A DNA stretch of 64,000 nt from Psammoneis japonica (Eukaryota). Under the pieces are notes generated by a model. It was given only the letters and a program-made list of their open reading frames with translations. It did not search any database and was not told the DNA's origin. The DNA is taken from contig QPGO01000114.1 of NCBI GenBank assembly GCA_008632985.1, positions 186,001-250,000 of the forward strand, read 5' to 3'. Within the stretch, counting starts at the first letter, position 1. Each line of letters opens with the position of its first letter. Positions 5,362 through 60,374 of the stretch are shown here, in pieces. The translations under genes were made by a program, and so were the position numbers.

Positions 5362-5376
5362 GCAAGACTGTTAATC
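5362..5376 (-). promoter_or_regulatory. Primer-binding site of copia copy 1 (complementary to a tRNA-Asn anticodon arm)
   Basis: Plus strand reads GCAAGACTGTTAATC and abuts the LTR; identical to copy 2. Confidence 0.6.
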
Positions 5377-5650
5377 TGACAGAAATTGAAGGCAAATGGC
5401 AAGAATTCAAACAACAACTCCTCACTGCTGTCTAAATGGCAGATGAGTCTCCGCTCAGAGACCGTCACAGGAGCCGAGAGACGTGTAAGTCGGCACAATC
5501 GGGCCACTGTCATTATTCTTGTGAGCCTTGTGGCTCGAAAGCAAACTACATCGCGCGTGAACGCGCGGAACTAAAGCACACAAAACTGTGCACGGCAAAC
5601 CAAACAGCGCGACACTTCGCGCGCACCCAAATCCTGTTCAAATCATGTCA
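5377..5650 (-). repeat. 5' LTR of copia copy 1 (TGACA...TGTCA)
   Basis: Matches 48005-48280 and 54837-55113 in reverse complement. Confidence 0.93.
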
Positions 5651-21790: not shown

Positions 21791-22049
21791 TTCTCTTCTC
21801 ACTTCTGTCCAGTTGGAGCAATGCACAGACCATTCCGAAACAGCCGCGAGCAACAGATTGCACAAGTGACTGACAAAAGCAGTCAAAAAAAAACATGTCA
21901 TTGGTTTTTGAGAGGTGGTTGCTCATTTTTTTCTCACCCTGCAAACATGGACTGCCAACACACATGATTTTTCAAAAAGTGAGACAAAACTTTGAGTGGC
22001 TGCATCGCCGCCATTGATTCCTCATTCACAGTGAAACACTCATGAGATT

Positions 22050-23605: not shown

Positions 23606-24929
23606 CTCCATTGGTGGATCCATTGGCTTGAAATTTTGAAGACAGCACATGCAGTTGGCCAAGGAAAAGCACTCTGCCTTTTTGCCTGCATGGCCATGAG
23701 AAAATGATTGCAGTGCCAAGCAGCAAGCAGCAAGTGGCTGAGCAGCAGGAGCATGCCTGCCAGTTTGCTTCGGGGGTTCATCATGGAACAGGCAAATTTG
23801 CCAATTGCACTGCCTTTTGATTGCAGGAAGATGGCAATTCAAACTGACACCACTGCGGTTGGCACAAAAATGGAGTGGAGTTGTCAACAATGCTGTTGTT
23901 GGAAAAGGTGCATTGAGTGCACTGTGGTGCACCTTGCGACTGTAAAATTGAAACATTTGCACACTCCAACTCACTGCTGCTGTTGCTGTTTTCTTCATTG
24001 TGTTTTTTCAGTTTGAATTTCCCAGGGACCCAAGGACACCGAGAACACAAAACAACCATGGCCATTTTCTCAGCTCCTCACACTGTCCCCAACCACATTG
24101 TCATGGGATCCTTCTCCCATCCCAGTGAGACAGACAAGGCCAACCCCAGTGCTTCCTCCAATGAGTTCAAATTGTTGCCTCATGCTCTGTTGGGTGCAAC
24201 TGGGAGTTTCAGAGCAAGGTGGACAACCAGGAGCAGTCATCCTTTCAGGTGGTCCACACAACCAAGTCTCAGATTACCACCAGCTCCAGAGCTGTCAGTT
24301 TGTCACTCCCGCTGGGCGTTGTTGGCAGCACAGTGTTTGGTTGTGTTGAGTCAATGAGGGCTGTCCGGGAGACATGGGAGGACCTGACAGTGGACAGGAT
24401 TGCTTTCTGAGTGCAGCTGTCAAAGCCACAGAGGGACTCCATTTGTCTCTGGGTCCTGGCTCAAGTGAATCTGAAGCAACCCGAAGCTTTTGAGTCCAGG
24501 GGAGTTAGAGACATTGTCTTCCCCGAGACAGAGATCGCAGGCAAGCTCAGCCAGACAACTTGCCATTGCCGGTTTCTTAGACCAAAGTGTGCCACCAACT
24601 TTGGACTCTTCCAGGAGAATTGGAACAAGACATCAGGGCCTTCTGAGGTGAGCAAATTTGTGACATATTTGTCACTGCATGACCACCCAAAGAATGTGAC
24701 CATCCCAAGATCCTCACACCATCCTTTCTGTTGTGACTTGATTTGCTCTTTCATGTCTCGACCGATTTTTCCTTGGATGGATGCGAGGAACAGAGAGCAT
24801 TGTTGATGTGCTTGGATTCGGTGAGCTCAGAGCATTTTAGATGCTCATCGTCTCGCACTCCAAAATTTGTGTTGGCATCTGAATTCTTTCCCGACCTGAC
24901 GGGTGTGCAGAAGTGACACAATCACTCCA

Positions 24930-29475: not shown

Positions 29476-29729
29476 GTTGTAGGGAGTGCATTCTCTCTGC
29501 CCGTCTTGCTTTTTCGATTAGTATACTCAATTCCGCAGCTCAACTATTGTCGCTTCTCCTTCAAATGGAAATTAGGCATTATCATGGAGTCAAAGGACGA
29601 GGAAAGAAGGGAGGAAAACACTGAGGAGAAGAGACTTCTCTATTGAAACATTTTGTTGTGTTTATAATTAAGAAGTTGATTTTTATAGTTAAGAAGTAGC
29701 TTTTATAAGTTAAGAAGTTGCTTGTAATT

Positions 29730-32700
29730 CATCGCATCCAGTCCTTTGAGAAGCGAGTGGGCACAGCAGCAACCCAAGACCGTGTTGATGAACAAAAACA
29801 GAGTTTGTTTGCAGTTTGCCATGATCCCACAAAAGCAAACACCAGTCTTGGAATTGGTCCCAGAGCCGGCAATGCTCTGTCGTTTTTTGCAGGACAGTGG
29901 TGGCACAAAGTGCAACTGCGCACCACCCAGAGTCACAGATCCAACTGTTCGCATGAGGACTGCACTCAAGGCTGCATCCTTAGGCTTGGGTGACGGTTTC
30001 AGATTGTAAATTTGTTTTCAGTGGTGCTTGGGTTAAAAATCCACCATTCGTGAGAAAGGCGGTTGATGTTGCTGTGTTGTTGAATCCACCTCAACGAATG
30101 CCAAGCATCACATCAACATCAGCTGTTGTTGAAAATGACAGAAGGCTTGAAACACACACCATTGCTTGCATGACAAAAGAGTCAAATGTCTGCAGACAAG
30201 CTGTCAAATTTCCAGAGATCTCAAGATTCTGCGGGAGAGAAAAAGGAGCAAGAGAAGGAACCACCAAGATGCTCTGTGGAGCAAACAACAGCACATTGTT
30301 GAATGGTTTGTTGTGCCATCCACCATCGATTGCTCATGCGGCCCCAAAACAGTCACTGGATGGGGGGCAGACAGCCTTCAGCGGCATGAAAATCCAAAGT
30401 CACATCATGCAAGACCAGCAAGCTCCAAAAAAAGCACACTGCAGTGTTGTGCGTTGGTCAGGGATCATTTGCTCTGTCCCTCACCTGCAGCTCTTGTCAG
30501 TGCAAAAAGAGATCTAAGATTTGCTCATGCACTGAAAGTGCAAAGAGGAGGGGAAGAACAAAGTGGCAGGCATGCTGCAACCCACATGGCAGCCTTCTAT
30601 GTGGATGCTTTGCATGCACTTTCTTTGGTCACTGACAATGCAGTTGTTGAGGCAACAAAGCTCATCATTTGTGTGTGGCCTTGCCTCATCAAGACATTTG
30701 CAGTCATGTCTTCTTCCTGGCTTGTTGCAACACAATGACTTTTCCTCTGTCATGGAGTGCAAGGCATTGCTCCATGTGGCAGCCAGGGCATGTCAACCAG
30801 TTTCTTTGCTGCTCTGAGGTCAAACACAAGGGAGCAACCAGCTGGGCCAGCCCAGCTTGTTGGCAAGAGCATTGGGTGTGCACACAGAGAAAAGCAAGTT
30901 GTGCAGTTGTGAAAAAGAGTGCTTTTGCATGCACAAATTTGTCAAACAAAATGACTCCTAAAAAGAGGAAGATGCAATGACAAAACCTGACTTTGGCTTG
31001 GAGCCATCATTGGCTCTTGTCTTGAAAAAGAGCACATGTTTGTGGACATGGTTTGGTGTGCTCAACTCGTCAGGCATTGTTGACAATGGATGAAACCCTG
31101 CCACATGCAAGCCAAGGTGAGATTTGTCCCGAGCACATCAGCACAAGCAAGTGGCAGCCCTGCTCTGTCACATTGGAGAGTGTTGTGTGTCAGCTGAGAC
31201 AAGAGTGCCTCAACAAGCACAGAGTGCTGGTGAGCAGGAGGAGACAACATGTGGTCAAAACAGCAGCAAGCACCACTTTTTGCTGGGGAGACAACAAGAA
31301 TGTGATTGTGAGTGCAGGCTGCGAGTGGCTGCCAACGTGGTCAAAGCAGCAGCAGCAAGTGTGACAACAACAATGTGATTGTGAGTTGCTCCCCCCCTTT
31401 TAACTCAAAAGTGGCACCCGTGTCTGCAATTTGAAGCTCAGCGGCTCTTTGTCAGATGGGTGTGCAGCAGCACCATGTGCGGGAGGGGGGAAACAGCTTT
31501 GCCAAGCTGCAGGAGGGTGGAAGATGACAAGACTGCAACATCAAGAGTTTTTTGGATTGTGCTGCATGTTGTGCGTGCACACATTTCTGCCCACAATCTT
31601 TGGCAAAATTGTTTCACACTCCCTGTTTTGCAGAGCCAAAGGCTCTCTGTTTTCTGCATTTGTGAGAATGAAAACAAGCTGGATGTTTTCTTTGATGACT
31701 GAAGAGTGCACCCACTGCCCAAAGAATTTGCATCAGAGGCTGTGAAAAGGGTTTTTGTTGAGCTGGAGCTCCAGCATTTGACACTGCAGAAGTGGAAAGT
31801 GGCCGAGGTGGAGACTTGTGGCAAGTGCCGCCAACAACGTTGGGGGAACATCTGGAGGGGTTGGCATCTTGCAAGCGGGATCAACGCGCTTGGGCTGTGG
31901 AACAAGGAAAAAGTTCTCAGTTCAGGTTTTCTTTCATCAAACGAAACACTGTCAACAACAGCCAAAACCTGCTTGACTTGCCAGAAGTGAGTGCCCAACA
32001 TTTGGGCCGCCACTCCTCTTGAGCCAAAAATCACCAGCCGGATGCAAAGCAGAAGAATCTGGTCTTTCAGACACGTGTTTTGTCCTCAGACAGAGCTTGA
32101 GTGGTCTCTCTTGTTTCATTGTTTCCATCGTTGACATGCAAGCATTGTCAACAGAGTCAGTTTCCACAGCGTCAATGGCTGCGAGGCATTTCCCCCGCCC
32201 CCCCCCCNCCCCCCCCCCCCCCACCTGCACACAATGACCAAGAATCTGCGTCACATCGGATCTGTCACGGCCAAACTTGTGAAAACTGATTTGCAAAATT
32301 CAAGCTGGACGTGTGCACTCAACGGACTGTTTTTTTTTCTTCAAAGTGGGCGTCACTGATTTTTAAGAAAACTGCAATCACAAATTTGAGCACAAAGCAA
32401 CCTTCACAGGGACTTTGAAGTTGTGAACGACAGCGGCGCTTTGATGCAAGAAGCAACATAAATTAAGACATTGTGATGAATGATCCAGCCCAACTCAATG
32501 GATCACAGTTTAAATTGCTTGTGAGAGTCTTTCTGTGCTTTGGACGCCGTTCTGGAGTCGAAAATGTCATCAAAACACTCTTGCTCGATGTTGTTGTTGT
32601 GCTCTTTTGACCAAAAAAAGCAAAATGAAGAAGTCAATTCTTCTCGAATCATTTGATTCAGCAACACGTGAGCCATTGACATGCAACACATGGTTGATGG

Positions 32701-35610
32701 TTGGGACTGTTGATTGACTTCTCGTCAACAATGATCGCCATTTTGACTTTAGATTCTTCATGTGACAGATTTTTCACAAGAGCTCCATTTTCACAAGATT
32801 CCAGTTGGCGGCACGAGGTCCGATTCTCAAGAATCGATTTTCACAAGATTCCATGCAGGATTCTGCAGAATCTCAGATTCTGCAGAGTGGTTGCAGACAG
32901 TGCTGGATCAGGCATCGGGCATGTTGAATCCATCACAATCATGTGCCGGAACAGGCAGTTGCAACCGACAGTGCCGCTGGCATTTGTCAATGCTCCATCT
33001 TGTCTCTTTTGCATCTCATGTTGGCACATGTGATGATCTCAGCCGACCACAAGGTGGAAAAGGCGGTTGTCGTGATTGGATGTGGTTTTGCAGGAATCAT
33101 CTCAATGGCTCATCATTTGGAAAGAAGTTCAACATGATTTTGTTGGAAGCACGAGATGTGTCTGAGGACGAGTTTGGCAGTTTGGTGGACTTGACAATGA
33201 TGGAGCTTGTGTTGACGTCAGAGTGTCTTGGGTTCATGAAGTGTGTGACGAGAGTCCCTTTTCCAAAAGTTCAGGAACAATCTCAATGTTCCGTTTCATC
33301 AATCAGAGAAACAAGAGCACGCCACAGATGAAAATGACCAACCGACACCCCAATGAATGCAATGCACACCGTCATTGACAAGGATGGCAACAGAACAAGC
33401 AAATCATTGGATCATTTGTGAGCACACAAGGACTGTCTCCGAGCTTCCTCTTGCGTTTCTCTTCTGTCAGAGCTGTTGCAATCCTTGGGAACAAATGCAA
33501 TTCGGAAAAATGCAAGAAGACTTGGAAGCGCTCGCGGGAAAATTGCCTTTTGTTGTGCAGAGGGGAAGCCTGGCGGTCTCTGCATCTTGGGCTCGCCCCC
33601 CCCCCCCCCCCCAGGCGCACCAGGAATTCAAAAATGCACCTTGGCATCGTTTGCATGCAATGAAGATGCTGAGGGCCCCACACAGCCTCGCCCTAAATGC
33701 CAGCGACTGCAATTGGTGACAAAGCCAAACTTGGAACTGCTGAGAGACCACCCAGATGTCAAACAGCACGAGCCTGAAGAAGCCTCAAACCAGTGCAAAG
33801 AGAAGGTTGCAGAATGCACTGAATTCATCCAGGTGACACCAGAAGCACTCACCACGACAGAGATTTCCGCAGATGCACTTGAAATGAAGCGCAGTGCCAA
33901 ATGGGAGCTGTCCACAGTGGGCCAAGACTGGAATGATTTTCGAACCGAAACTTTTTCCCATTGCAGAACAAAAATTCTCGAAGAGGGCCATTGCTGCCAC
34001 AGGTGTGAGACACCCAACGGGAAGACAGCTTTTCTTGAGTGCGGCTGTCACAACATGCTTGCAAATGATCGACATGCAACTGGTGCATGTGGACTTCGCT
34101 TGTGCACAAAGTGCGTGTCAGATTTGGAAGAACTCAAATCGTTGAACCTTGAAGTCTGCAAAGTTTGCAAAACACTCTCTTGCCAGATCAACCCTGAAAC
34201 TGGAAGATGCAGGGACACCAACTGCATGGCTTGCCTGCACAAGGTGGCAGGAAACAGAACCTGCTTGGAGCACATTAAAGGAAAAGGATCCTCAAAGAAA
34301 AAGCGCGTGTGTGAGCTGTGTGTCAATGCACGCTCATTGGTGAAATTGGCGGAACCGACTGTTCAGAGTGTCGCGCCGCTTGACCTGGTGCCAAAAATGC
34401 AACAAAGGCATCGCAACGGTGGCACATGCAGCAACAACCTTTGCGATGGTCACCTCAACAGGGACATCCTGTCGTCTGTCCTTGACCACTGTGGATCTCT
34501 GGAATTGACACGGTTTGCTCTGGCAAGCTGCGACAACTTCCGCTTTTCCAAAGCTTGCGTCAAACGACTTTGTCAACAGTTGAAAAGCATTTCGTGCCTT
34601 CACAATCATTTCACTTGTGGAGCATCCTTTAAAAAACTTCATCATCTGGAGGAAGAAGTCTGTGATCGGTTTGGCTTTTTCGCTGTCGACGACTTTGAAG
34701 GCGCCCAGCATTGCCTTCGACGGCACGACAGACTTTCCTTCACAAAGGCTTGCGCACCACACTTCCACCCATCTAAAGGACACAGCATGATGCATTGTCA
34801 AGACACATTGGAGTTGGGTGCATCATCACTGGCAGGGCTCATTTGTGGCAACAAGATGCTTTGCTCGAATGTGGCATCACACTGTGTGATTGGATGGGTG
34901 AAGTCAACCACATTTGCATCTGCATTTTCCAAGATCGGGTTGGTGTCAACAGAATGTGATCCTTTGGAGCCATGCAGAGAACCCGATTCTCACTGGGTTG
35001 CACACCATGAGTTGCCTTTAAAACTCTTTCTGCCGAGGGAAGAGGATGGTCAGGACTCAGAGTTGTGTGAGGAGACTGAGGCACTTTTTGGACTCAAGCA
35101 TGAAGTCAGTGCCAGGACTCTTTGTCACTTTGTGTTCAGCGCCAATGATCTCCATCGTTTTTGTTGCTGTGATGCATTCGAACAACAAGTCACAGCCGCC
35201 GAGGGACAAGTCCCCGTCAATGACGAGTCAATGCCTGACGGTCCTCTTCATTGGGCAATTGTGACAATCAAGGGTCCTGATGATGGACTCATGTTTGGCA
35301 TCCCGGATCAATTGTCTTTGCGAGATTGCGCACAGAGAACATGAACATGCGCAACTCCTTGCCCGCATCATGGGCAGGAACCGCGGTCACGTCTCGTTGG
35401 TTTAGAGGCACTTCCTGTGGATCAAGATGGAAATTCTTTCTGCTGTCGACAATGTTGTGAAACAACTGCTTGTGCATGTCAAAAACAAATTGTGCTTGCA
35501 CCAGAGAGCAGAGATCATTGCGGCCACAGCTGCCACACACCATGCCGCAGCTGTTGAACAGCTGGCTTTAGAGGAGCATGGCATGTTAATTTGTCCACTC
35601 TCTGCTCCAG
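29730..35610. other. TpA-depleted domain
   Basis: TA is very rare; survivors are mostly CTAA, TTAA or TTAG. Confidence 0.85.
33641..35344 (+). pseudogene. TpA-hypermutated duplicate of an unknown gene (Cys-rich region plus F-box-like segment)
   Basis: The 622-aa ORF contains no Tyr. It is paralogous to 38305-39370 (HLNRDILSSVLDHCGSLEL vs HLNSDILSRVLDFCGSLEL), and the paralog's ATG is TTG here. Confidence 0.7.
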
Positions 35611-35745
35611 CTAGAGAGTTGTAACTACTGGCTCTACTAGAGCTCTCTAGCTAGAGAGAGTAGCTACTCTAGCTAGAGTCTCTAGCTACTTTAGTGGCAC
35701 CGGTAGAGAGTAGAAGTACGGCAGCTACACCGTGCGGTAGGGCGC
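35596..35745. other. CTAG/AGAGTAG low-complexity motif cluster at a domain edge
   Basis: ctctactagagctctctagctagagagagtagctactctagctagagtctctagctac; absent from the paralogous position near 39600. Confidence 0.65.
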
Positions 35746-36010
35746 GGGAATTCGTACACTGGAACTGACGTCTGCCAGACGATCGAGCGAAAACAAAAGA
35801 ATTTCGTGACGTGGCAAAATTCTGCTCACATTTTTTTTGGTCCGGAGAACAGAACAAAATACAAAATAAATCCATTTGGCATCTGTCTTCCCACATCACG
35901 TTTCGGCATCAAAGATCGTAATGCGAAAACCGAAACAAAGAGCTTCACTACTGAAAACAGACTGATTTTATCATTCAACCATGATTGGACATGCCGTGTT
36001 AAAAACCACC

Positions 36011-36325
36011 ATGCGGAAGCATGCCGTCCTCTCGACTCGTTTCGTAAGCTACGTGCCGCACTTCTCGCCCATGTTTGAGACTGCCCATCTTTCTCGCCCG
36101 AATTCTCCCCCAAGAATTTCACGCCCTCAGTCATCGGCAGCTGCGACAGCAATGAAAGAAATGGACCAAGATGACTACACGAGCTTTGCTGTTTTGGGGT
36201 CGGTCATTTTTGTTGGCTTGTACTTTGCAGGGCTCGGACAGTGGACTCCTTTCTTTGTGGAACAAGCCGACCAGCTTCAAAAGAGAGCCACAGCTTCACT
36301 TACGGCGGAGAAAACTACTCAGTGA
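36011..36325 (+). CDS. Small hypothetical protein with one predicted TM helix
   Basis: ORF with FAVLGSVIFVGLYFAGLG; mutated paralog at ~39900-40230. Confidence 0.35.
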   Translation: MRKHAVLSTRFVSYVPHFSPMFETAHLSRPNSPPRISRPQSSAAATAMKEMDQDDYTSFAVLGSVIFVGLYFAGLGQWTPFFVEQADQLQKRATASLTAEKTTQ

Positions 36326-36863
36326 ACTGATTCGTTCTGCTTCTGGAACTAATCAGTGTTCCACATCAATGTGATGGATAAATTGAGTTGCGAACGAAGC
36401 GACACAGATTAAACATCGTGGAGCAATGGGTCGATACTCATATTGTCACATTGTTGGTAAAGATGTCTTGTACAGTACATATTATACACGTTTGCGTGTC
36501 GATCGAAATAGATTGAATTAGAAAACAAAAGTTAAAAATAGTAAGTGTCAGAACTACCGGTATACGATTACTCGAAGCGTCGTTGCACATAATCACGGAG
36601 TTGCGTACCAACAGTCCCAAGGGACACGCAGTAGACCTATCTTCGCCGGAATCGTCCACAGTTAGCTCGTATTTTTGACACAGGCGGCGAGCTAAAACGC
36701 CTTCAACATCCTCGAAGTCCAGCATTTTAGCTAGCATAGCACAAAGATCGGGTGGCAAAAGCACAACCGGCGACCACATCTGATTTTGCACGCGGCCTCA
36801 CGCCTCACGCACGCACGCACCCGCATCATCACCCAGCACGAAATAATAGTAAAAACATCCACC

Positions 36864-37118
36864 ATGGCGTCCAAATCTTCTCTTCCTGCAGCACAATCAT
36901 TACAGGATTGCGCATTGAGGCCATCACCCAAAGAACGAGTTGAGGGTGCTCCCTCGAGGCATCCTGTATCATCATCATGTTGCGCTGAAGAACCTCCGTC
37001 GAAAAAGGCAAAAGAAGCCTCGCCATCAGAATCAGCCACCTTTCAACATGCGGTCGATACCTTCTTGACGTCTGGTTGCTGTGTAATTCCCAAAGCGTTT
37101 GTGAAGAATTGCTTGTGA
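36864..37118 (+). pseudogene. 5' fragment duplicate of the PhyH gene at 40810
   Basis: MASKSSLPAAQSLQDC...TFQHAVDTFLTSGCCVIPKAFVK matches 40816-41075, then stops. Confidence 0.8.
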
Positions 37119-37372
37119 GTCTTGATGTGCTACAAAATCGCAAGCGATGGGAGGGTATGGGAACCTTAAGCAGGTGGCCTTGCATTTCCGTTTACTTTTT
37201 GGAATAAATTCGACTCGTTCGGGATTGTCAATCGAGACCCGACCAAGATCAAGCAGTTCTACGATCATTCCAGTCTTATAGGAAAGCCCATTCTTGTCAT
37301 GAATCTTGGTGGCGATGCCGCTAGGCGGATTGGGGGCGAAATATAACGGATGACGAATTCGTTGCCGAAACG

Positions 37373-37648
37373 TTGGCAGCACTCCGCAAAGTCTTTGGTC
37401 CTGATGCTGTTCCTGACCCGATTTCTTCAAAGGTGACTCATTGGAGCATCGATTCTTTTGCCATGGGCTCCCACTCATTTCCGCAGACAGGAAGTACTGA
37501 GACAATGTACGACGTGATTGGAACTCCAAGTGGAAATCTATTGTTTTATGGAGAGGCAACGTGCAAAACATCTTATGCAGCGGAAAACGGGGCGTGTCTC
37601 TCTGGGGCACGTGAAGCCAATCGCGTTATCAAGCTGGAGAACACATGA
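37373..37648 (+). pseudogene. C-terminal fragment of a flavin-dependent amine oxidase
   Basis: VTHWSIDSFAMGSHSF...GNLLFYGEAT...GACLSGAREANRV; no upstream FAD-binding domain seen. Confidence 0.75.
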
Positions 37649-38304
37649 CGGTAACTCGCTGCTTTGTTCTCAGACAAATGATGGATTCTGGACCGTGCGC
37701 TGAGAATGACGCTCTTGATCTCTACCACTGGGGGGTCTAAAGCTCCGAATGGCATGTCCGTTTTATTTGGGGACTTGAAAATTGAATCATCACAGCTACG
37801 AAAAAGCATTTTTTTCTCTTGCTTCAAGACGATGATATCAATGCAGTGAAATGGAATAGCGCAACCCAGGGAACGCAGATCGATCTCCGTTGTTGGAGTG
37901 ATTGAAACAGAGAATGCGACTGGTTACAGTAAACCCACCCAGTATGCGTTCTAGACGGAAGCAAAATGATGCGAGGAAGCATTATCCAAGTATCGGTCGC
38001 TGTTGCCGATTTCTACTATGCTCTCGCTGACTTTATCATATGAGTTGAAAGATTGGCTGTTTGATTAACGGCGACATATTGAAGTCGATAGAGACGGACA
38101 GGAATAACAGCAATGATGAAATCACGAAATCAAATCATCTTGGATGCGTATAGAAAGATTGAGTTCACTGCCTGTGTAGGAGACTGACTGACGACTCTCT
38201 AGAGAGTAGGCGGGAGCGGAGCGAGCACGCACTCCGAACCACCAGTTCCGTGTTTTCGTGTGAAGCGGTGGCTGCCTCAAAGCTCGAGAATATAAAAATG
38301 CACC

Positions 38305-39370
38305 ATGGCGTCGTTTGCATGCAAGAACGATGCCGAGAGCCCCACACAGCCTGACCCTAAACGCCAGCGACTGCAAGCGGGGACGAAGCCAAACTTGGAA
38401 CAGAGGCGTCGTAACGGTGGTGCGTACAGCAACAATCTTTTCGGTGGTCACCTCAACAGTGACATCCTATCGCGTGTTCTGGACTTTTGTGGATCTCTGG
38501 AACTGATACGGTTTGCTCTGGCAAGTTACGACAACTTCTGCTATTCCAAAGCTTACGTCGGACGACTTTCTCAAACGTTGAAACACTTTTCGTACTTCAT
38601 TGGTCGTTATATCCTTATCCTTTGGAGACATATGGTTTCAGGAGCTAATGAGCTGTCGGTGTTTTGGTTTTCACGCAGTCGCCAACCATGAAGGTGCCAG
38701 GCAGTACCTTCGACGGCACGACAGTCTTTCCTTTACAAAGTCTCACCCGCCAGATATCTACCAATCTATAGGATTTAGTATGATACATTGTGAAGATTCT
38801 CTGGAACTTGGTGTACCGCCACTGATGAGGTTCATTTGTGGCAACAAGATGCTTTGTTCGAATCTGGCATCTCACTGCGTAATTGGATGGTCGAAGTCAT
38901 CCTCATCCGCATTTGTTGATTCTCCCAAGATCGGATTGGTGTCGACAGAATGTGATCCTTTGGCACTATGTAGAGAACCCGATTCTCACTGGGTTGCCCA
39001 CTATGAGTTGCCTTTAAAAATCTCTTAATGCCGACAGAAGACGGTCAAGACTCAGAAGGCGAGAACTCAGACGGCGAAGAGTCAGACGCGGGCAACTTCG
39101 CTGAGGCACTTTTTGGACTCAAGTATGAAGTCAGTACAAAGACTCTGTCTTACTTTGTGTCTAGTGCCAAAAATCTCTATCGCTTTCTTGGGTTGAAACG
39201 TTCCAACAAGTCACACATTCTGAGGGACAAGTCCCCATCAATGACGCGTTAATGCCCGACGGTCCTTTGAAGTGGGCAATTGCGATGGTCCAGGATCCTG
39301 ATTATGAACGCAGGCACGGTACTGGTATTTGGAATCTTTTATTTTTTGCGAGATTGCTCAGAACATGAAT
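38305..39370 (+). pseudogene. Frameshifted, internally deleted paralog of 33641-35344 (TpA intact)
   Basis: Three consecutive ORF pieces (38305, 38600, 39028) are colinear with the 622-aa ORF. Confidence 0.7.
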
Positions 39371-40809
39371 ATGCACAACTCTATGACTGTTCCATCAGTA
39401 GGAACTCCGATTTTGTCTCGTGGATTTAGATGAGGTGTCTGTGGATCAAGATGGAAATGCTTTCTCCCGCCGTTAATGTGAAATAACTGCTTTTACGTGT
39501 CAAAAACAAGTTGTGCTTACATAAGAGATCAGAGATGATTGCAAGCACAGCTACCACACACCATAACGTAGCTAGCTATCGTTAGAGCACAGCATGTTAG
39601 TGTAGCTTTTACTTCCGCCCAAAATTCGTACGCATAAAAGCTGAGACGATTGAGTCGATCAAGAACAAAACATCATGACGTGGCAAAATTCAACTCGCAT
39701 TTTCTTGCTCGGGAGAACCTCTCTACTCTAGCAGCTAGAGGAACAGTGCATTAGTCCCAGGGAGAACAGAACAAAATCCATTTTTTTGGCATCTCATCTG
39801 CAATGCTGCATCAAAGATCTCTCTGGGAAACTGAAACAAAGAGATTTACGGACAGACTGATTGTGCTCAACCGTGATTGGACTGACTTTGTTAAAAAAAA
39901 ACACCACATGGAAGCACCATGTTGTCTTGACTCATTTTGTGAGCTGCGCACTGCACTTCTCACCCACATTTGAGACTGCCCATCTTTCTCACCCAAATTC
40001 TTTCCCAAGAACAATTCCATGCCCTCAGCCATTGGCAGCGGCGGCAATGAAAGGAATTGACCAAAACGGCTGCTGCTTTGGTCCAATCCCATTGTTTGTT
40101 GGCTTGCACTTTGCAAGGCCTGGACAGTGGACTCCTTTCTTTGTGGAACAAGCTGCCCAGCTTCAAAAGAGAGCTGCGCTGGCCAGCACCACAAGAGGCT
40201 CAGCCCTTGCAGCAGAGAAAACTGCTCAGCAATTTTGCTCACTCTGCTTCTGGAACTGGCCAGGGTTTTGTGTCACAATGCACTGGACATTGAGTTGTGA
40301 ATGAAGTGATGCAGAGCAAAAGTCGTGGAGCGACAGGTCGGCGCACATGTGTTGGCAAGGATGTTTTGCACAGTGCGCACATTTTTTGCATGTTTGTGTG
40401 TTGAGCACAAGTGACTGAATCAGAAAATGACAATTGTGCACCTGAAAATTGCTTGGAGCTCCTTCGCTGCACATCACAGAGTTGCTTGCAAACAGCCCCA
40501 AGGGGCGTGCAGGTGGTGGACCTGTGTCTTTGCCAGGGTCCCACCACCACACAGTGAACCCAGAATTTTGACACAGGTGGCGAGCTAAAACGCCGTCAAC
40601 ATGCGCCAAAACCAAGATCTAAGATTTGACCCACCTTGGCAAGCTCGAAGTCCAGCAAAAAGGCTTGCCACATTTTCACTGCGGCCTCGGTCGGCTTGCA
40701 CACGCACGGCGGGTCGTCTCCATGGCGACGAGCGCCCGCGCGCGTCCGCGCGTGAGCAAGAGTGGCAAAAGCACAACCGTCCACATCTGATTTTGCACAC
40801 ATCACCACC

Positions 40810-42236
40810 ATGGCCATGGCGTCAACATCTTGTCTTCCTGTAGCACAAACATTACAGGATTGTGTAGCGGGTCCATCACCCGAAGAACGAGTTGACGGTT
40901 CTCCCTCTTGGCGTCCTGTATTGTCGTCATGTTGCACCGAGCCTCCCTTGAAAAAGGCAAGAGAAGCCTCTCCATCATCATGCACCTTTCAACATACTGT
41001 CGATACCTTCTTGACGTCTGGTTGCTGTGTAATTCCCAATGCCCTTCCCAAAGCATTTGTAAAGGATTGTTTGTCTAAAGCGCAATCGGATTGGAACTTG
41101 TTGGATGGAGCATATAAGAGACGCAAAGAAACATTATCCAATAATAATCATCACGAGTATGCCGCCGTTCAACGCATGGATTATGCAGAAATGGTTGCCC
41201 GAGATGGACAACGACGAGATGTAAGATTTCAGTTGGATCGATTTCCTTTTGTAACGCCTGGATTGATTTACAATCTGATTGTCTTTCCGTTGGTGCAAGC
41301 CTTGTTGCAATATGGAACAGACAATTCACAACAACCACAACAGCAACAACAACCGTCGGATCAATCGGCCATTCATCTATTGTACGCGGGTATCATGTGG
41401 GCCATGCCTGGGAATAAGGACAAGAATAAGGAGGAGCCGAGTACACCCCAGAAGTGGCATGCCGACGGAGATCACTTGTTTTCGCACGTCCATTTGCCAC
41501 CTCATTGCATCAATGTCTTTTATCCTCTCATCGATTTGAACAAAGACAATGGTCCCACGCAAGTTCAAGCGGGGACTCATCAATTGGGAAATTTTGCAGG
41601 ACAGGACCATCCTACCTTTGATTTGCAAGTCAATGCCGGGGGAGTCTGTTTGTTTGATTATCGATTGAAACATCGTGGTTGTGCAAACCTTTCAAAGACG
41701 CCTCGGCCCATGTTGTATTTGGCGTATGCAAAATCCTTTTATCGGGATGTAGGAAACACTCGATCGTTGAAATCGATATTTTTAGACGACTCCACCGTTG
41801 ATTCACCCCCATGGATGCCACGACTCTTGCGAGGACAAGCCGTGCCGCAAATGGGGCAAGGATTTGAACACGTGCAGAATGTAGCAACGAAAGACCCCTC
41901 GTGCAACACTGTTGCGAATGTGATTTCACAACCAGATTCAACACAAACGTTAGAGAAATCATCCAACACAACTACTAATGAAATACTATCATGCCTTCCA
42001 CCACTTCCAACGTTGGTGAACAATGGGTCCTCTTTCAAATGACAGTTGAATTGGGTCAAGGTGTGGCCGCACAAACCTTGCGTGTCCATCACGGAGACAT
42101 TCCCATAGAAGTCGCCACACAATGTTGTATAAAACATGGAATTGATCCAGTGGCCATTCCCGCCTTGACGGATATGATTCAACAACACATGAATGCGGCA
42201 CTACTGACCGCCGCCCAAACAGAAGAGAGCGGATAG
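40810..42236 (+). CDS. Phytanoyl-CoA dioxygenase (PhyH)-family 2OG-Fe(II) oxygenase; frame shift or intron near 41990
   Basis: QKWHADG, INVFYPLIDL..DNGPT...GTH and LFDYRLKHRGCAN..PRPMLY. Confidence 0.85.
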
Positions 42237-43239: not shown

Positions 43240-46200
43240 TGAACCGCGACGGAAACGAGAACCTGCATGTGCGGAACGCGGACACAACAAGACAAGAACC
43301 AACCAAACACATCACCGAGAATGCTAAATTCCCCATTCCCGACTCTGACTCCACGTGGCATGCAGCAATCCGCCCGCTTTGTCTCATTGTCCGCCTGTCT
43401 GCCTCGTCCACATCACCTCCCCGAGGAGTCGTCTCCCTGTCCCCGTTTGTTTGGGGTCCACTCTGCTCTCTGGCTAGCTGGCAGCTCTCTGCTCTCTCTG
43501 CTGGAGAGAGAGATTTTCATTTCCACCATCATCCCACCACCTGGCTGTCAACCAAGTGCAAGCTTTGGCCATGGTCAATGTGTTTCATGCCACATCAGAG
43601 CGCGCATTGCAGCGATCACAGACCACCTTTCTCGCAGTCATTTTTTCAATCTGCCACAGCACAAAATTCTGTTGTTTCAAACCTTGACAGTTCTTGTGGA
43701 GCTGGCAACGACATTTCAACTGCAACAGATGAACATTTTTGTGCTGTGGGATCAGACCCCCCCCATGAGGAAAACATGTGTTTTGCCATGAAGCAGGGGC
43801 GCGTTTTCCCTGTGAGAGTGCCCGCCCTCCATCCCCGCAAAACCTGCAAATTAAAATCATTTGCGCTGTGCTGCAAACATTCTGTTTTGTTGCTCACATT
43901 TAAATCAAATGATGCTGATGGAGACAACACCCCAGAGTTTGTGCGGCAGCAGTTGCAGCTCGCTTTCTTGAAGTGCCGCTGCTTTTCAGCAGTTGTCTGC
44001 ATGAAGGGCAACCAAATTTGAGGCACCTTGGAGCACAGACAAGATGTTGGGCTTGTGAAGTCCAGAAAAGCTGCCATGTTTTTGTGCACTCACAACAAAA
44101 TGTCACAATCCAACCACACACCTCCAAAGGTGGACGGAAGTGTGCTGGTGGGAAGCACTGCGGCATCAGAAATCTTCATGGTTGATTTGCTGTTTTTGTG
44201 AAAGAAAAAACATTGTGTGTCTGTCATGGAGCGGCAGCCATGGACAGCGTGCAGACTTGTGGGGGGTCCCCATCAACAGTTTTTCCATGTCCTTGGCTCA
44301 GCGGGAGTCTTTCAAAAATGACTCGTGACATGAAACACACAAAACAATTGAGGGCGCCTGCAGAGTCCAAATGTTTTTGTGCTGAAACTGTTGTGTTCAC
44401 ACAATTTGTGCAAAAACAGACTTGACTGTTGTCGGGTCAGGCACTTTTTTGCAAATGAATTGAAGAAAAATGTGCCTGATCAGCATGTGTGCATGGTCAC
44501 CAGACTGTGCAGGCGTGTGTGCATGCATGAGGTGCAAGGTGCAAGTGGAGAATGATGTGCAGATTTGCTGCCACTGAGTGAGCTGACACGCAATGGATTT
44601 TCCACCAGCACACAACCCCGTGGTCCACATGGAAGATGAATTTGTGTGGGTCTCTTGGGTTTTTGCATGTCATCAAAATTTCTTTGATCTTCAAGAGACA
44701 CACGCCCAAATTCAAAAAATTCAGGGAGGCCGTTCCCAAAACATGTTTGAGGATGAACAAAAAAATTCTGTTTGGCAGTCTGAACAGGCCCAGGGTTGCC
44801 CCGAAGTGCTTCTCAAAATGTTTTTAGAGGGGCAAAACATCCGCCATTTCCAAAAAAGACCCTGCTGTTGGCAAAACAGATCCCAGTCCTTCACATGCAA
44901 ACAGCACCACAATGGCGCAGCAACGCACACAACAAACACCATGGCGGGCAATGCAAGTGTCATTCACTGATCTGCTTGCTGGCATTTCCAGAGAAGATCA
45001 GCACAATTGGACAACATTTGTGCACCGCATTCCTGGGTGAAGTTGGGTTTCTTCTCATTGCTTGTTGCCATGTCATTTTGCAACATTTTGACTTTCTCGT
45101 GTTTTTTGCTTTTTGAAACTTCTGCTTGCGCCAACCACCAACAGCTTTTCCTGCAGGGTGTGGCCAGTTGGATGGTTGCATCGAACCCAAACATGTGCAA
45201 CCAATTGGCCCCACCCCAGCTGACTCACAACCACATGGTCCACAATTGCCTTGGCACCTGTGCTGCAGAGGGTGCTGAGTGGGCCTGTGAGCAATGGCGA
45301 GACAGGAGAAACTGTGAGGAAAAAACTGTGCCACACTCAAAAAAGCATCAAACGCCCAAAAGATGCCATGTGTGCAACAAACAAACATGACCATCACATT
45401 GTCGACACTTTTGTCAGAAGTTCAGCCATTCTTGCCTTTGCAGCCCAAGTGCCAAGCTTGATTGTGAACGCTGCTGTGTCAGACACAGCAGCCCTGTTTG
45501 TGCCTCTCTCAGAGCAAAAGTCACGAAACACCCAAGAGGCAAGGAGCAGCATGAAATCCTCCACTGCAAGCATCATTTTTTCATCATCAGCATGTCAGCC
45601 CACAATGGCATTCATGCCATTGCCGCCACTGCAACGGGTGCCAGGTGGACCTGCGAGCCATCACAAAACAAGAGCAAGAACATTGTGGCGCCCATTTTTG
45701 TTGTTGAGATTCCTTCCTGTTTGTGTCACAAGACATGAAATCTGCCAGACTTGCCCTCACGTCTTCAAGATTTGTGAAAAAAGACACAAGTCCTGGTGCT
45801 CATGACCCAATGATTTTGTGTCTTGTCAACACAAATTCATGTTTTTTCAATGCTTTCCGGAGTGACCCACTGAGGCACATTCCCACCCTGATGATTTCGG
45901 CCGCAAAATGAACACAATTTGGCCAAATTTGTGCATTTGCGAGCATCAGGCTGGGAACAAATTTGATCGGCAAAAAAGATCAAAATCTCATGTCGAGCTC
46001 AGAAAGGAAACTGCACACTCCAGCACTGTTTGCACTGCTGCCAACTCTCTGGCTGGCCAGAGCTTCTAGAAAGGCCAACATCATGACATTGTCAGCAACC
46101 ATTGTTGTCCATTTTGTGATTGCTCTGTGGCAACCAAAGACTCATGATGACACCAGCGAAGGTCAGAAGAAAACACCCAACATCCGATCTGCTGGCAGGA

Positions 46201-48004
46201 GTTGCAGAGAGAGCAGAGAGGCACACAAAACAATGGTGTGCAGCAAGGCTGCAGCACGCAAAACTGCCAAATGAAATTTCCACAGCATGTGAGGTGCTGA
46301 AAGGCGCTGTTCTTAACTCCCGTGGTTTGCCAATGGCCCAAATCCATTTCAAAGAGCAAGGGCCATAGAAAACAGAGCAAAGCACTGTGAGGCACATTGC
46401 CGACAATGTTCTTGTGCAAAACACTGACCCCCACCAGCGTCATTGTCCCAACTTGCAACAAGGTCAATGAGGTGAGTGCACACAGCCTTCTTCACAGTCA
46501 TGTTCCATCTCAAGGGAGCACAAGCCTTCTTGCTGTTGTCATTGACATGACAAAAATTCTTTTGTTTTCTTGACTCTTGACCATCAGTCAAGCAACAACC
46601 TTGAATGTGCGCCAAAGAACCATGTCAACGCAGTGTCAGATCACACATTGCTGCAAAGATTTGGCCTCCAAGTCTGCAGATGCATGGTTTGCAAAGAGCT
46701 CCAATGCAAAATCTGAACAAGAGAAACAATGACATCAAAAACAGCATTGGTCAGCACGGTCGTCACAAGCCATGCCAACAACAAAAACTCAAGATTCTGA
46801 CAAATGGACTGCATCAAGCACAGTCTTGTTGACCTGTCTCTGCATTCTTGCCTTTGCAGACAGGATGGTCATTTGTGCATGAACAGGTCCGTTCATGGCA
46901 GCAGCCACAATGGTTGTTGTGTGGATCAGAGCAGAGAGAGAAGGGTTTTGGGTGATGGGGGCTCCTCTTGTGGCCCCAGATTTCTCCTCAGATGAAAGAA
47001 AAACATCCTGCACTTGTTTGTTGCCAGTTGTGACGAACACAGTCTTTTCGTCTTGCAGCCAACATTGTGGCACTTTCATCTCTGTTGGTTGGCCAGTCCA
47101 CAGTGCACAGCAGCCGCTGCAGCGCTTCAAGTGGTCCACCAAAAGAAGCTTGGCTGCGTGGCTCATCTCTTGTGCTGCAGATGGCTCCTTTCCTTTTGCA
47201 ATCATTTTCTTGTGCAGAGCTGGCAGAAACGCCATTTGACTGCAGCGGCACAGCTGCATGATCTGGCCCCATGCCAACATTGTGAGAGGAGGCCAGCCCC
47301 CGCTGTGGTGGCAGCTCCTGGTCCGGGGCTGTGCCCCGCAGCTGGCCTTGCTGGCGCACAGCCCCACAAACATGCACATTTCCTTTGACGCCAAACCACA
47401 GGAAAATGCACTCTCAGTTGCCTGTCTGTTGTGTTGCAGCAGGTGGATCATTTCCTTTTGCAGCCATTTTTTTCACAAAGAGCTGGCTGCTGGGCTGCCA
47501 AGCAGCCTTGGTGCTGCTGCTCACACCAGGTGCAGTGTGAGAGCAGACCTGACACCTGATTGCTGAGAGTCAGTCTTCAATCTGTCAAGTGCAAACTCAA
47601 ATTTAACCCTTCAACCACCAGGGGAGCAAATCTCCATGGGTGGAGATTTGCTCTGCTGCTCTCAAGAATTTGTGATGCGTCATGCACTCACAGTGCACAC
47701 AGTGTGAAAATGTCACATCATGCACAATCTGCTCCAAGGGTGTGGTGTCATTGCTCTGTTTGTGATGGCAGCTGAAGCAACCTCCATTGTCAAAAAGGTT
47801 GAGATTTGGCTCCTCTCTGTTCACAGATGAAGCTTGCAAAAAAAACCGGTGTTGAAAGTTGACATTTGGCTTTCTAAATTGCAAAAAGGGTTCCCCAGAT
47901 TTTTGGCGAATGTGCGCTCCAAAACAAAATCGCACAAATGAAACACCGCACACATCTGAAATTGCTTCGCTCACCATGTTTGTGATGAAAGCAAGCAAAT
48001 TTCC
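43240..48004. other. TpA- and CpG-depleted decayed repeat domain (continues at 55114-55600 beyond the copia)
   Basis: TA is very rare; contains copies of 18493-18690 (at ~44966-45160) and of 56530-56940 (at ~45250-45660). Confidence 0.82.
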
Positions 48005-48280
48005 TGACAGGATTTGAACAGGATTTAGGTGCGCGCGAAGTATCGCGCGCTGTTTAGTTTACCGTGCACAGTTTTGTGTGCTTTAGTTCCGCGCGTTCAC
48101 GCGCGATGTAGTTTGCTTTCGAGCCACAAGGCTCACAAGAATAATAACAGTAGCCCGATTATACCGACTTACACGTCTCTCGGCTCCTGTAACGGTCTCT
48201 GAGCGGAGACTCATCTGCTATTTAGACAGCAGTAAGGAGTTATTGTTTGAATTCTTGCCATTTGCCTTCAATTTCTGTCA
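48005..48280 (+). repeat. 5' LTR of copia copy 2
   Basis: TGACA...TGTCA termini; direct repeat of 54837-55113. Confidence 0.95.
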
Positions 48281-48295
48281 GATTAACAGTCTTGC
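48281..48295 (+). promoter_or_regulatory. Primer-binding site (complementary to a tRNA-Asn anticodon arm)
   Basis: GATTAACAGTCTTGC immediately after the LTR; the reverse complement contains CAAGA-CTGTTAA-TC. Confidence 0.6.
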
Positions 48296-49218
48296 TCATT
48301 GTCAACCCATTGAGCAACCGCCATCGTCGTCGTTGATTTACCAACGACGCCATTTCAATTCTACGTGGACCCCGTATATATTCTACATACATCGGCAAGT
48401 CTACGCGCATTCGATACCAGGGCATCGGCAGGAAGTTAACGTCACCGTCAAGTCTCCTTACCGCTGGATATCTGGATTGATTATACTACCTTTGACCGCT
48501 GAAGACATACATTCAACGGTCATATCCAAGTCTATCCTTGATCCTCATCCCTTCATATACCCATTCATCGGTTAACGGTCAAGAACCCTACATATTCAAG
48601 GATCTTCGTCGCTGAAGACATGTGTGTATATACACATCTTCACGGCCAAGAACCTGTACCCACTCTTCGGACCACGGTTTTGCTGCCACTCTACAGGCAC
48701 ACCGAGTCCATTGCACCTGATCTACCCCGGACCACTGGTGCTCTACAGTTCTGCCAGGTCCACGAGGACGACTGTGAGAGCAAGCAGCCGTGATTGCAGC
48801 CTGCGTTGGGGCGAGGGTGCTTTCCCACGTTTGTTCGTTCGTCCACAGCGCCTGACGCCTGCGTCAACTGGCCAGCCTGATCGGGAAATCCAACCGACAC
48901 AAAATGAGAACGGTTCGGGGGTCTTGTCCACCTCTGGTCAGCTCACCTGCAGGGGTTTGCAACCCGCCACTCCGCTCGCAAGCAACCCAAAGCGCCGCCA
49001 GCTGCGGGTTCGGACGTGCCGGCACAACTCTGCGGACCGGATGGGAAGTTTAGCACTTGACAACGAACGGGATGACAAAGCCCGGCGACTTCTGATTTTA
49101 AGACAGTTCAAGATTTCAAGTCAAGTCTGTTTCAAGTCAAGTCTGTTCTCACCCAAGTTTCGAGTCTACCTTCTCTTCCCAACCAGAATTGATTGTCCTG
49201 ACACCACTTTTGTCCACC

Positions 49219-54889: not shown

Positions 54890-55113
54890 TTTGCCGTGCA
54901 CAGTTTTGTGTGCTTTAGTTCCGCGCGTTCGCGCGCGATGCAGTTTGCTTTCGAGCCACAAGGCTCACAAGAACAATGACAGCAGCCCGATTGTGCCGAC
55001 TTGCACGTCTCTCGGCTCCTGCAACGGTCTCTGAGCGGAGACTCATCTGCTGTTTAAGACAGCAGCAAGGAGTTGTTGTTTGAATTCTTGCCATTTGCCT
55101 TCAATTTCTGTCA
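54837..55113 (+). repeat. 3' LTR of copia copy 2 (TpA-mutated)
   Basis: Follows the PPT and is followed by the TSD. Confidence 0.95.

Positions 55114-60342: not shown

Positions 60343-60374
<32 letters not shown>

Follow-up and report, generated by a model that had tools for sequence, protein, structure and literature searches.

Organization of the locus

The present analysis concerns a stretch of 64,000 nucleotides from the diatom Psammoneis japonica (assembly GCA_008632985.1, contig QPGO01000114.1, positions 186,001 to 250,000 of the forward strand), hereafter the window, which contains a tandem duplication (copies A and B), two Copia retrotransposon copies (c1 and c2), host genes, and eight domains that are strongly depleted of the dinucleotide TpA (TA). 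As listed in Table 1, the duplication comprises four segments shared by both copies (S0 to S3), two of which, S1 and S2, have lost TA in one copy only, and in opposite copies. In the reading that we consider probable, this mosaic would result from a mutation process that converts TpA to CpA or TpG within bounded domains, each segment having been mutated in one copy according to its position. All results refer to this one 64-kb window.

Table 1. Features of the window (positions are those of the window; LTR, long terminal repeat)
Feature	Position	Strand	Remarks
Copy A of the tandem duplication	33624..37118	+	S0, A-only 650 bp, S1, centre, S2, S3
Copy B of the tandem duplication	38288..41075	+	repeat search, self-blastn, global alignment
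S0 (A / B)	33624-33737 / 38288-38401		86%; self-blastn
S1 (A / B)	34390-35552 / 38388-39573		74%; self-blastn
S2 (A / B)	35906-36709 / 39808-40602		68%; self-blastn
S3 (A / B)	36862-37096 / 40814-41042		84%; self-blastn
A-only stretch, ~650 bp	33738..34389		TA-poor; self-blastn, alignment
S1 of copy A	34390..35563	+	hypermutated; frame homologous to gene X, 0 Tyr
S1 of copy B	38388..39577	+	TA-normal; gene X start codon at 38305, frameshifted
S2 of copy A	35990..36860		TA-normal (37 TA, 48 CpG over 35906-36709)
Domain D5 (S2 of copy B)	39893..40840		948-bp TA-poor island (2 TA), CpG-reduced
Truncated 5' PhyH gene fragment, right end of copy A	36862..37118	+	self-blastn, alignment, translations
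Flavin amine oxidase C-terminal fragment, spacer between copies	37325..37648	+	Pfam
Domain D3	17694..24506		TA-poor (rho 0.02), CpG-poor (0.12), tandem repeats
Domain D4	29726..35563		TA-poor, 18 TA in 5838 nt
Domain D6	43476..47875		TA-poor, CpG-poor, high-copy repeats; other piece 55114-55576, split by c2 insertion
Domain D8	59662..64000		TA-poor, CpG-poor
Other TA-poor domains	1-7760; 10127-10769; 48745-55576
CTAG-rich block	35611..35685		~50 bp beyond D4 right edge; no counterpart at matching place in B
Copia c1	1..5650	-	cut by window start; TA-poor incl. LTR 5377-5650
Copia c2, complete	48005..55113	+	276-277-bp LTRs, 5-bp target-site duplication TTTCC
c2 5' LTR	48005-48280		TA-normal
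c2 3' LTR	54837-55113		TA-poor, as is the c2 body
Edge-straddling pair	5651-5772 (0 TA) / 10026-10147 (13 TA)		12:0; 12/15 mismatches TA to TG/CA
Edge-straddling pair	45236-45677 (0 TA) / 56517-56948 (15 TA)		12:0
Edge-straddling pair	c1/c2 5' region		44:0; c2 48005-48560 and beyond keeps TA, c1 lost
Edge-straddling pairs	S1; S2; c2 LTR pair		40:1; 20:1; 18 vs 4 TA
Gypsy-type RNase H relic	6813-7271	-	PF17917, E 4.5e-6; TA-poor flank of Copia c1
Amidohydrolase	15523-17472		TA-normal; Pfam
Cyclase	25320-26840		TA-normal; Pfam
PhyH-family dioxygenase gene	40810..42039	+	TA-normal; Pfam listing 40756-42039; 5' end = right end of copy B
MYND/Arm protein	57810-58646		TA-normal; Pfam

Reciprocal TA loss in an ancient tandem duplication

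The two copies were compared by self-blastn, global alignment and segment-wise counts. A repeat search pairs them in all of its 15 direct-repeat families (33624-37096 with 38288-41042; 73-93% identity) and self-blastn resolves the four segments in collinear order at 68-86% identity overall, so that the block duplication which an earlier sequence-only reading had placed at 33620-37115 and 38290-41075 is real. The 275 mismatches of S1 include 111 transversions and, besides the TA-loss sites, 89 other transitions; TA loss accounts for only about 15% of the differences in this segment. Transversion divergence between the copies is similar in S1 (111/1147) and S2 (68/750), which points to a single ancient duplication that would have accumulated many ordinary changes since. 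Because the copies are about 25% different, including about 10% transversions and many indels, they are not alleles, and an allele state as a basis of the targeting, which the sequence-only reading had entertained, found no support and does not fit copies far too diverged for haplotypes.

On this background of ordinary divergence, the TA counts are strikingly reciprocal: S1 holds 4 TA in copy A and 51 in copy B, and S2 holds 37 in copy A and 3 in copy B (Fisher's test on 4/51 versus 37/3, p = 2.5e-18). At 40 sites of S1, a TA in B stands opposite a CA or TG in A, with one site in the opposite direction; at 20 sites of S2, a TA in A stands opposite a CA or TG in B, again with one site in the opposite direction. 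These polarised counts bear out the earlier claim of a reciprocal asymmetry with one copy mutated per segment, and equal TA loss in both copies, the outcome named as its refutation, is not what they give. The peptides quoted for the two copies (TCSNN/AYSNN, ASCDN/ASYDN, KACV/KAYV, AHHELP/AHYELP and LKHEV) are found in the translations, LKYEV was read by hand from the bases, and the quoted DNA strings are present in the A/B alignment.

The depleted parts end abruptly. S0 and S1 of copy A form the right end of domain D4, with the last lost site at 35563 and clearly unmutated TA from 35622 at the latest. Domain D5 begins between 39892 and 39940 and ends between 40766 and 40841, taking in about the first 30 bases of the PhyH reading frame; the edges in the duplication are thus resolved to about 60-75 bp or less. 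CpG follows the same direction to a different degree in the two segments: S2 holds 48 CpG in copy A and 17 in copy B, and the CpG-loss sites in this segment are strongly asymmetric (34 in B, 7 in A), whereas the asymmetry is mild in S1 of copy A (21:13). This difference indicates that the duplication was probably hit on two separate occasions, S2 of copy B being the earlier target.

Within the A-only stretch, the part at 34127-34242 has related copies elsewhere in the genome that differ from it by CA/TG swaps. A single N within a G/C homopolymer (32208) and a run of 13-14 C directly left of copy A (33600-33613) are possible weak points of the assembly.

TA-poor domains across the window

The domains were delimited from the dinucleotide profile together with a map of all 1267 TA in the window. 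Eight TA-poor domains, including one small island, cover 37,573 of the 64,000 bases (~59%), and their edges are resolved to 6-200 bp. In the seven domains that were measured, rho(TA) is 0.02-0.15, compared to 0.51-0.76 in the DNA between them, and rho(CA) and rho(TG) are raised to 1.36-1.98, compared to 1.04-1.29; the TpA/ApT ratio within domains is 0.0-0.1 and the (CpA+TpG)/(ApC+GpT) ratio is about 2. Five of the seven are also CpG-poor (rho 0.12-0.56), D3, D6 and D8 most so, and the two that hold the Copia elements have rho(CpG) values of 0.88-0.91. Since the Copia copies are poor in TA but not in CpG, the two processes are separable, TA loss being fast and CpG loss much slower, and the degree of CpG decay provides a relative age for the domains. 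Domain D4 is itself composite, its left part consisting of CpG-poor DNA with high-copy repeats and its right part of S0 and S1 of copy A.

Domain D3 contains two tandem arrays, at 20708-21792 (units of ~190 bp) and 22067-23606 (units of ~336 bp), in which most differences between units are CA/TG swaps, suggesting that the arrays are older than, or contemporary with, the hypermutation. We also observed CTAG-rich, partly palindromic blocks at 24932-24988, 35611-35685 and 42995-43052, with weaker ones at 38190-38210 and 39711-39745, all situated in TA-normal DNA at a distance of 48-426 bp from the edge of a TA-poor domain; by a rough count, the chance of finding three of three such blocks within 430 bp of an edge is about 0.7%. 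The blocks are repeated in the genome, as seen at contig joints, and may serve as boundary elements or be small mobile elements. In a smaller sequencing run (X2), whose kind was guessed as DNA, contig cover between 29000 and 45000 is restricted to TA-normal stretches (35408-36475, 38078-39679 and 40748-43417), and D4, D5 and D6 have no cover at all; data derived from transcripts or biased by methylation would show such a distribution, which was not used as evidence.

Copia elements and the polarity of the change

The two Copia copies form a GC-rich Ty1/Copia inverted repeat (1-5650 and 48005-53657) of 96.4% identity, and they allow the direction of the change to be determined. First, the two LTRs of one element are identical at insertion, and aligned slices of the c2 LTRs now hold 18 TA (5') and 4 TA (3'), so that the loss must have occurred in place after insertion. 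Second, the 3' LTR of c2 and the LTR of c1 carry CA opposite TG, and the reverse, at the same sites (5 concordant and 5 discordant, by hand count of the alignment), a configuration that implies an ancestral TA. Over the 5.65 kb shared by c1 and c2, 200 columns differ, of which 139 interconvert TA, CA and TG, with 44 dinucleotides being CA in one copy and TG in the other (split 26:18); 47 are CpG to TpG/CpA exchanges in either direction, and 14 are of other kinds.

Third, the encoded polyprotein records the same loss. At the 43 columns where tyrosine is conserved in 80% or more of 15 related polyproteins (the first 15 longer than 1800 aa among the 120 relatives listed), c2 has Cys at 19, His at 13, Tyr at 7, Phe at 3 and a gap at one. 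The replaced positions include conserved tyrosines of the reverse transcriptase and integrase, and columns conserved for F, H, C, W, I, L, V or R have for the most part retained their residue. Tyrosine makes up 2.9-5.0% of all 120 listed relatives compared to 0.41% of c2, so that none of the 120 is tyrosine-poor; as these are the best-scoring relatives, the comparison favours intact copies. Similarly, rho(TA) is 0.33-1.02 (median 0.685) at 80 related Copia loci of metagenomic origin, again best-scoring ones, compared to 0.10-0.15 in the window; none of the 80 falls below 0.33, and no second organism with this footprint was found this way. Locus L077, which has the lowest value of the 80 (0.33 overall, 0.25 in the poorest 1-kb window), may represent a partly edited copy from a different organism.

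Taken together, the alignments demonstrate that TpA is the ancestral state and CpA or TpG the derived one (A:T to G:C at TpA), that the change is specific to this dinucleotide, and that it acted on a Copia LTR after insertion. The Copia copies of the window are accordingly dead, edited elements rather than members of a TA-avoiding lineage.

Along c2, all TA are kept up to 48558, kept and lost sites are mixed from 48562 to 48744, and all are lost from 48752 onwards; the element was inserted into DNA that is TA-poor on both sides and was so already. The 5' part of c2 (48005-48560), that is, the 5' LTR and about 280 bp beyond it, thus forms an unmutated island, the same part being mutated in c1. 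A protected promoter and conversion from an intact copy are candidate causes of this island.

This polarity bears directly on repeat-induced point mutation (RIP), the frame in which the sequence-only reading had placed the asymmetry. In Neurospora and other ascomycetes, RIP changes C:G to T:A, mostly CpA to TpA, and thereby creates TpA and stop codons; it is triggered by pairwise homology, hits both copies, can leak into adjacent single-copy DNA, and depends on RID/DIM-2 in filamentous ascomycetes. Canonical RIP acting unevenly on two copies would share with our observations a transition hypermutation that disables repeats, can spill onto neighbouring genes and is detected by dinucleotide indices, and the altered TpA and CpA frequencies indeed recall RIP indices. 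However, the polarity is opposite, with TpA lost (TpA/ApT 0.0-0.1) and CpA and TpG gained; the LTRs, the c1/c2 comparison and the conserved tyrosines all place TA at the ancestral end; the A:T to G:C change at TpA can create no stop codon, and none has arisen by it; in each pair one copy has escaped; and the host is a diatom, as are the sources of the eight named PhyH homologues. The polarised counts therefore refute this frame, and we attach virtually no probability to it.

A selective avoidance of TA through codon usage or RNA stability has a similarly negligible probability. TpA is mildly under-represented in most genomes, as it is in the normal parts of the window (rho 0.51-0.76), but the depletion in the domains is 5- to 30-fold stronger and covers LTRs, tandem repeats and flanks, and such avoidance is contradicted both by the unequal LTRs of one element and by the replacement of conserved tyrosines with Cys or His in the reverse transcriptase and integrase.

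Editing of retroelement RNA or cDNA was also considered and rejected. APOBEC3 edits cDNA and ADAR double-stranded RNA, in each case on one strand and within the element, so that both LTRs would carry the same edits, and ADAR favours U before the edited A. Their footprints likewise are dinucleotide-specific clusters of transitions in retroelements; here, in contrast, both outcomes and hence both strands are represented (Tyr to Cys 19, Tyr to His 13), the c2 LTRs are unlike each other, and DNA outside the elements is affected.

An artefact could take the form of a mis-join of haplotypes or repeats, or of systematic base-calling errors where modified chromatin carries a modified base at TpA. Base modification limited to domains could in principle yield miscalls limited to domains, the window contains one N (32208), and the only DNA run holding the stretch (X1) is probably the assembly's own sample, so that its contigs are not independent support. 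Nevertheless, X1 contigs that are exact (0-2 differences) tile 37064-40862 without a break at a depth of 57-67, level with the flanks (58-70), and thereby span the end of copy A, the spacer, copy B and both edges of D5, the left one within a single exact contig (38834-40151); 16 of 431 contig records were listed, and the interior of copy A is represented in the depth table, its pieces lying outside those listed. Divergence of ~25% with ~10% transversions and many indels is not that of alleles, and a haplotype mis-join, the other refutation that had been proposed, is therefore unlikely. Moreover, miscalls would neither resolve ancestral TA into CA and TG at about 1:1 (5:5 in the LTRs and 26:18 between c1 and c2) nor come together with CpG decay. 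We regard an artefact of either kind as hardly credible.

Position within a domain and pairwise homology

Six repeat pairs of the window straddle a domain edge, and in all six the TA loss is one-sided, with only the copy inside the domain being mutated (Table 1). Pairs with both members in domains, in comparison, show CA/TG discordance (18505-18695 with 44978-45164, the tandem units of D3, and the Copia bodies), and the mutated stretch 5651-5772 is a single-copy flank beside a repeat. The one-sided loss in all straddling pairs shows that position within a bounded domain, and not pairwise homology, sets the mutated state, in agreement with the earlier suggestion that targeting follows a local domain.

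Homology-triggered mutation of both copies, followed by selection that retained one working version per segment, would also yield a reciprocal pattern, as is expected of complementary retention, and the PhyH gene beside D5 does look intact. Against this, neither copy of S1 looks functional, the LTRs and other non-coding pairs are equally one-sided, and the single-copy flank at 5651-5772 was mutated as well; we therefore consider this course very improbable.

The only serious rival for the mosaic, which leaves the hypermutation itself real, is recombination: an ancient gene conversion by, or exchange with, a paralogue at another site of the genome that had itself been hypermutated. A mutated tract of about 1 kb pasted into copy B, or an unmutated tract pasted into copy A, would produce the same mosaic; the tracts are of a size that conversion could yield (0.95 kb for D5; in c2, ~0.55 kb of unmutated 5' end followed by a patchy 200-bp transition), the edges are very sharp (at most ~60-75 bp), and the genome contains further relatives of the unit, with contigs 90-99% alike on 34127-34242 and 36029-36097. 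On the other hand, transversion divergence is alike in S1 and S2 (111/1147 and 68/750), as expected from one duplication followed by change in place, D4 extends 3.9 kb upstream past the duplication, and the depth of D5 at 90% likeness (57-80) is near the single-copy value of ~60, so that no close donor now exists. Overall, we judge conversion to be unlikely, though less so than the other alternatives.

Besides this rival, several observations weigh against a positional process acting in place. The tyrosine replacements are mostly common to c1 and c2 (17 concordant, 5 discordant), indicating that part of the load predates the c1/c2 split and was copied from an edited source, the rest having been added in place. 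The unmutated 5' LTR of c2 lies between TA-poor stretches, so that simple spreading from neighbours is insufficient, and D5, at 0.95 kb, contains no visible repeat or insertion as a nucleating site. A link of the domains to silent or methylated chromatin is at most suggested by their co-location with CpG decay, no sequencing run recorded as RNA was found, and the whole argument is drawn from one window. A positional mutation process nevertheless remains, in our view, the probable explanation.

According to this explanation, the process would turn TpA into CpA or TpG on both strands, close to saturation, inside sharply bounded stretches consisting of retrotransposons, repeats and their neighbours, and would be accompanied in most domains by a slower decay of CpG to TpG/CpA, as cytosine methylation would be expected to cause. 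After the old duplication, the left part of copy A would have come into D4 along with the upstream repeats and the A-only insertion, and a 0.95-kb part of copy B would have become the separate domain D5.

Flank preference and stop-free open frames

For six pairs, 134 ancestral TA could be inferred from the unmutated member, and 116 of them are lost in the mutated copy. The loss depends on the flanking bases: where the TA is preceded by a pyrimidine and followed by a purine (YTAR, that is, TTAA, CTAA/TTAG and CTAG), 11 of 21 are lost, compared to 41 of 42 in RTAY and 64 of 71 in mixed contexts (Fisher p ~2e-5). Consistently, among the 138 TA that survive in domains, TTAA is enriched 5.1-fold and CTAA/TTAG 2.8-fold, and ATAT is absent (0/138) compared to 86 of 1115 TA in normal DNA. 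Read on one strand, the better target is a TA with a pyrimidine on its 3' side, and YTAR is partly spared. TG exceeds CA in the c1 5' region (32:12), which is not the case in S1 (15:22) or S2 (12:6). Strand-coordinated clusters, in which consecutive sites share one outcome (CA or TG) as would be left by processive single-strand deamination, were rejected by permutation runs tests on four polarised series (p = 0.94, 0.40, 0.45 and 0.78).

By the genetic code, a change of TpA to CpA or TpG makes no stop codon and erases TAA and TAG, so that open frames persist; only CGA to TGA, by CpG decay, can close a frame. In D4, a frame of 640 codons (33422-35341) contains no Tyr, 51 Cys and 31 His, and it exceeds the longest frame in each of 500 first-order Markov simulations of D4 (maximum 437). 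The frame contains the relic of a real gene, hereafter gene X, but much of the gene-like look of S1 is a by-product of the stop-free change. A search of 1.84 billion representatives returned one remote homologue of gene X (P0121; E 1.2e-8, 30-33% identity). In tblastn, 222 residues of P0121 match copy A within a single frame, whereas the match to copy B is split over frames. At one position, where P0121 has Tyr, A His and B Tyr by hand translation, the comparison fits an ancestral TA by eye; P0121 is too distant for a site-by-site test. Assignment of gene X to the F-box proteins was dropped, the only lead being a weak Atlas score of 0.83, below the guide value of 0.9.

Copy A lacks the start codon of copy B, and indels with lengths not divisible by three disrupt the frame of copy B, so that both copies of S1 look dead, A having lost its start codon and all Tyr and B being frameshifted. 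For the sequence-only reading this means that its intact second copy is intact in TA content but not as a gene, and that its view of genes unlike transposable elements as targets holds insofar as S1 derives from a host-like gene with one remote homologue, the 640-codon appearance being largely a by-product. Likewise, its suggestion that gene duplicates could be resolved asymmetrically is only partly supported, since both copies of S1 look dead.

Genes and repeats inside and outside the domains

All host genes recognisable by Pfam lie in TA-normal DNA; they include, besides those of Table 1, weaker matches to a lipase, NifU and a CDP-OH transferase. The PhyH gene, which adjoins D5 and looks intact, has eight named homologues, all from diatoms (Seminavis, Cylindrotheca, Trieres, two proteins of Fragilariopsis and two of a Bacillariaceae sp. 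among them), at 34-54% identity, the best, unnamed match reaching 58%. The protein collection searched contained no identical protein and hence no close sequenced relative of this diatom. The best named relatives of the amidohydrolase are Seminavis proteins (three named matches, 50-53% identity), followed by bacterial proteins. The flavin amine oxidase fragment between the copies corresponds to profile positions 340-443 of 443; Pfam scans of the domain open reading frames (ORFs), including the shorter ones of D4, found no 5' part upstream of copy A, and this gene seems to have been broken by the duplication or its insertion.

Of the 83 domain ORFs that reach 110 aa, 82 were scanned together against Pfam (the 83rd in a separate scan); their only convincing match was the Gypsy-type RNase H relic, which adds a second class of retroelement to the Copia reverse transcriptase recognised in TA-poor DNA, and 49 shorter ORFs of D4 and five of the duplication gave no match. 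No deaminase domain was found among the scanned ORFs of the window and no viral domain was seen in it; Rfam and tRNA scans of the window returned no match. Contig depth in run X1 reaches ~1400 at 31136-31669 and 650-1600 at 43418-44485, compared to ~60 for single-copy DNA, indicating that the domains hold high-copy repeats. Most domain DNA is without recognisable origin; the recognisable contents are Copia, the Gypsy relic, high-copy repeats, the host-like gene copy and D5. An open frame at 28552-29472 is built of 81-bp, 36-bp and 24-bp tandem repeats encoding units rich in Gly, Lys, Tyr and Glu; its purine skew is strong (GC skew 0.31), and it matches no Pfam family.

Comparison with TpA hypermutation in Bigelowiella natans

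The closest known system is that of Bigelowiella natans, a chlorarachniophyte. In mutation-accumulation lines of this organism, 230 of 231 mutations in two viral hypermutable regions were A to G or T to C, all on TpA, at an ongoing, episodic rate about 1000-fold above background (bioRxiv 10.64898/2026.01.13.699255). Its genome is reported to hold 124 clusters poor in TpA and rich in CpA+TpG, in which reverse transcriptase and DDE domains are over-represented (Mettrop et al., bioRxiv 10.64898/2026.01.13.699255), and an ADAT2/TadA-like DNA adenine deaminase was proposed, and is unproven, as the agent (bioRxiv 10.64898/2026.01.13.699255). Both systems have in common the exclusive change of TpA to TpG or CpA on both strands, its confinement to local regions, the resulting TpA-poor and CpA+TpG-rich footprint, and a mutation that raises GC against the usual AT bias. 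In the window, 139 of the 200 c1/c2 differences are of the TpA type, 116 of 134 ancestral TA are lost, and the loss is confined to the domains. The footprint described here thus appears to be of the same kind, in a second supergroup lineage.

The differences are as follows. The host here is a diatom and hence a stramenopile, unlike the rhizarian B. natans. The depletion is far deeper (rho 0.02-0.15, compared to 0.45 in the nucleocytoplasmic large DNA virus (NCLDV) region and a cluster cut-off of 0.43), and the targets seen are LTR retrotransposons, repeats and a host-like gene copy rather than giant-virus or virophage insertions. CpG decay accompanies the TpA loss here, whereas the words CpG, flanking and trinucleotide are absent from the main text of the preprint. 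Edge sharpness, independence of homology and the sparing of YTAR are, relative to the main text of the preprint, observed here only. Ongoing mutation was measured in B. natans; here a footprint is seen, in which the difference between the c2 LTRs indicates post-insertion action in place. Beyond B. natans, the window adds targeting by position, action after insertion, kinetics relative to CpG decay, a flank preference and stop-free, Tyr-free ORFs. The full-text literature searched, which leaves out most subscription journals so that absence is not proof, contained no report of TpA-directed hypermutation in diatoms or other stramenopiles, and no precedent other than the B. natans preprint of 2026.

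Methylation-driven CpG decay is a further related process, since CpG to TpG/CpA changes occur in the same domains and make up 47 of the 61 non-TA differences of the Copia copies. It covers the CpG part only, however, as TA is depleted and CpG retained in the young Copia copies (rho(CpG) 0.88-0.91, compared to 0.12-0.56 in the older domains). Diatom transposons are known to carry DNA methylation and H3K9/K27 marks (PMC4504042).

Regarding the chemistry, deamination of adenine at TpA in genomic DNA would be the most likely, by analogy to the deaminase proposed for B. natans, and an adenine deaminase would then be the most likely agent; oxidation of thymine at TpA would leave an identical sequence footprint.

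Implications

As a broader and more tentative proposal, which we hold to be possible but somewhat short of probable, diatoms would possess a genome-defence editing by adenine deamination at TpA in double-stranded DNA, with TA followed by a pyrimidine as preferred target, aimed by a positional or chromatin mark with nucleosome-sharp edges and not by homology. It would be shared with chlorarachniophytes and hence old in SAR (stramenopiles, alveolates and Rhizaria), would disable transposons without stop codons, would spill onto gene copies and thereby decide the fate of duplicates, and would leave long Tyr-free pseudo-ORFs.

If the findings are general in the diatom, TpA hypermutation is not a peculiarity of Bigelowiella and may be an old or recurrent eukaryotic defence. 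The duplication and the LTR pair would then serve as natural experiments, with positional, post-insertion targeting narrowing the mechanism to a reader of chromatin or domain state, and the flank preference (YTAR spared, RTAY lost in 41/42) would represent the signature of the enzyme. Moreover, as TAA and TAG are erased and no stop is made, long open frames in such DNA will be annotated by gene finders, and zero-Tyr, Cys/His-rich diatom "proteins" may be hypermutated relics.

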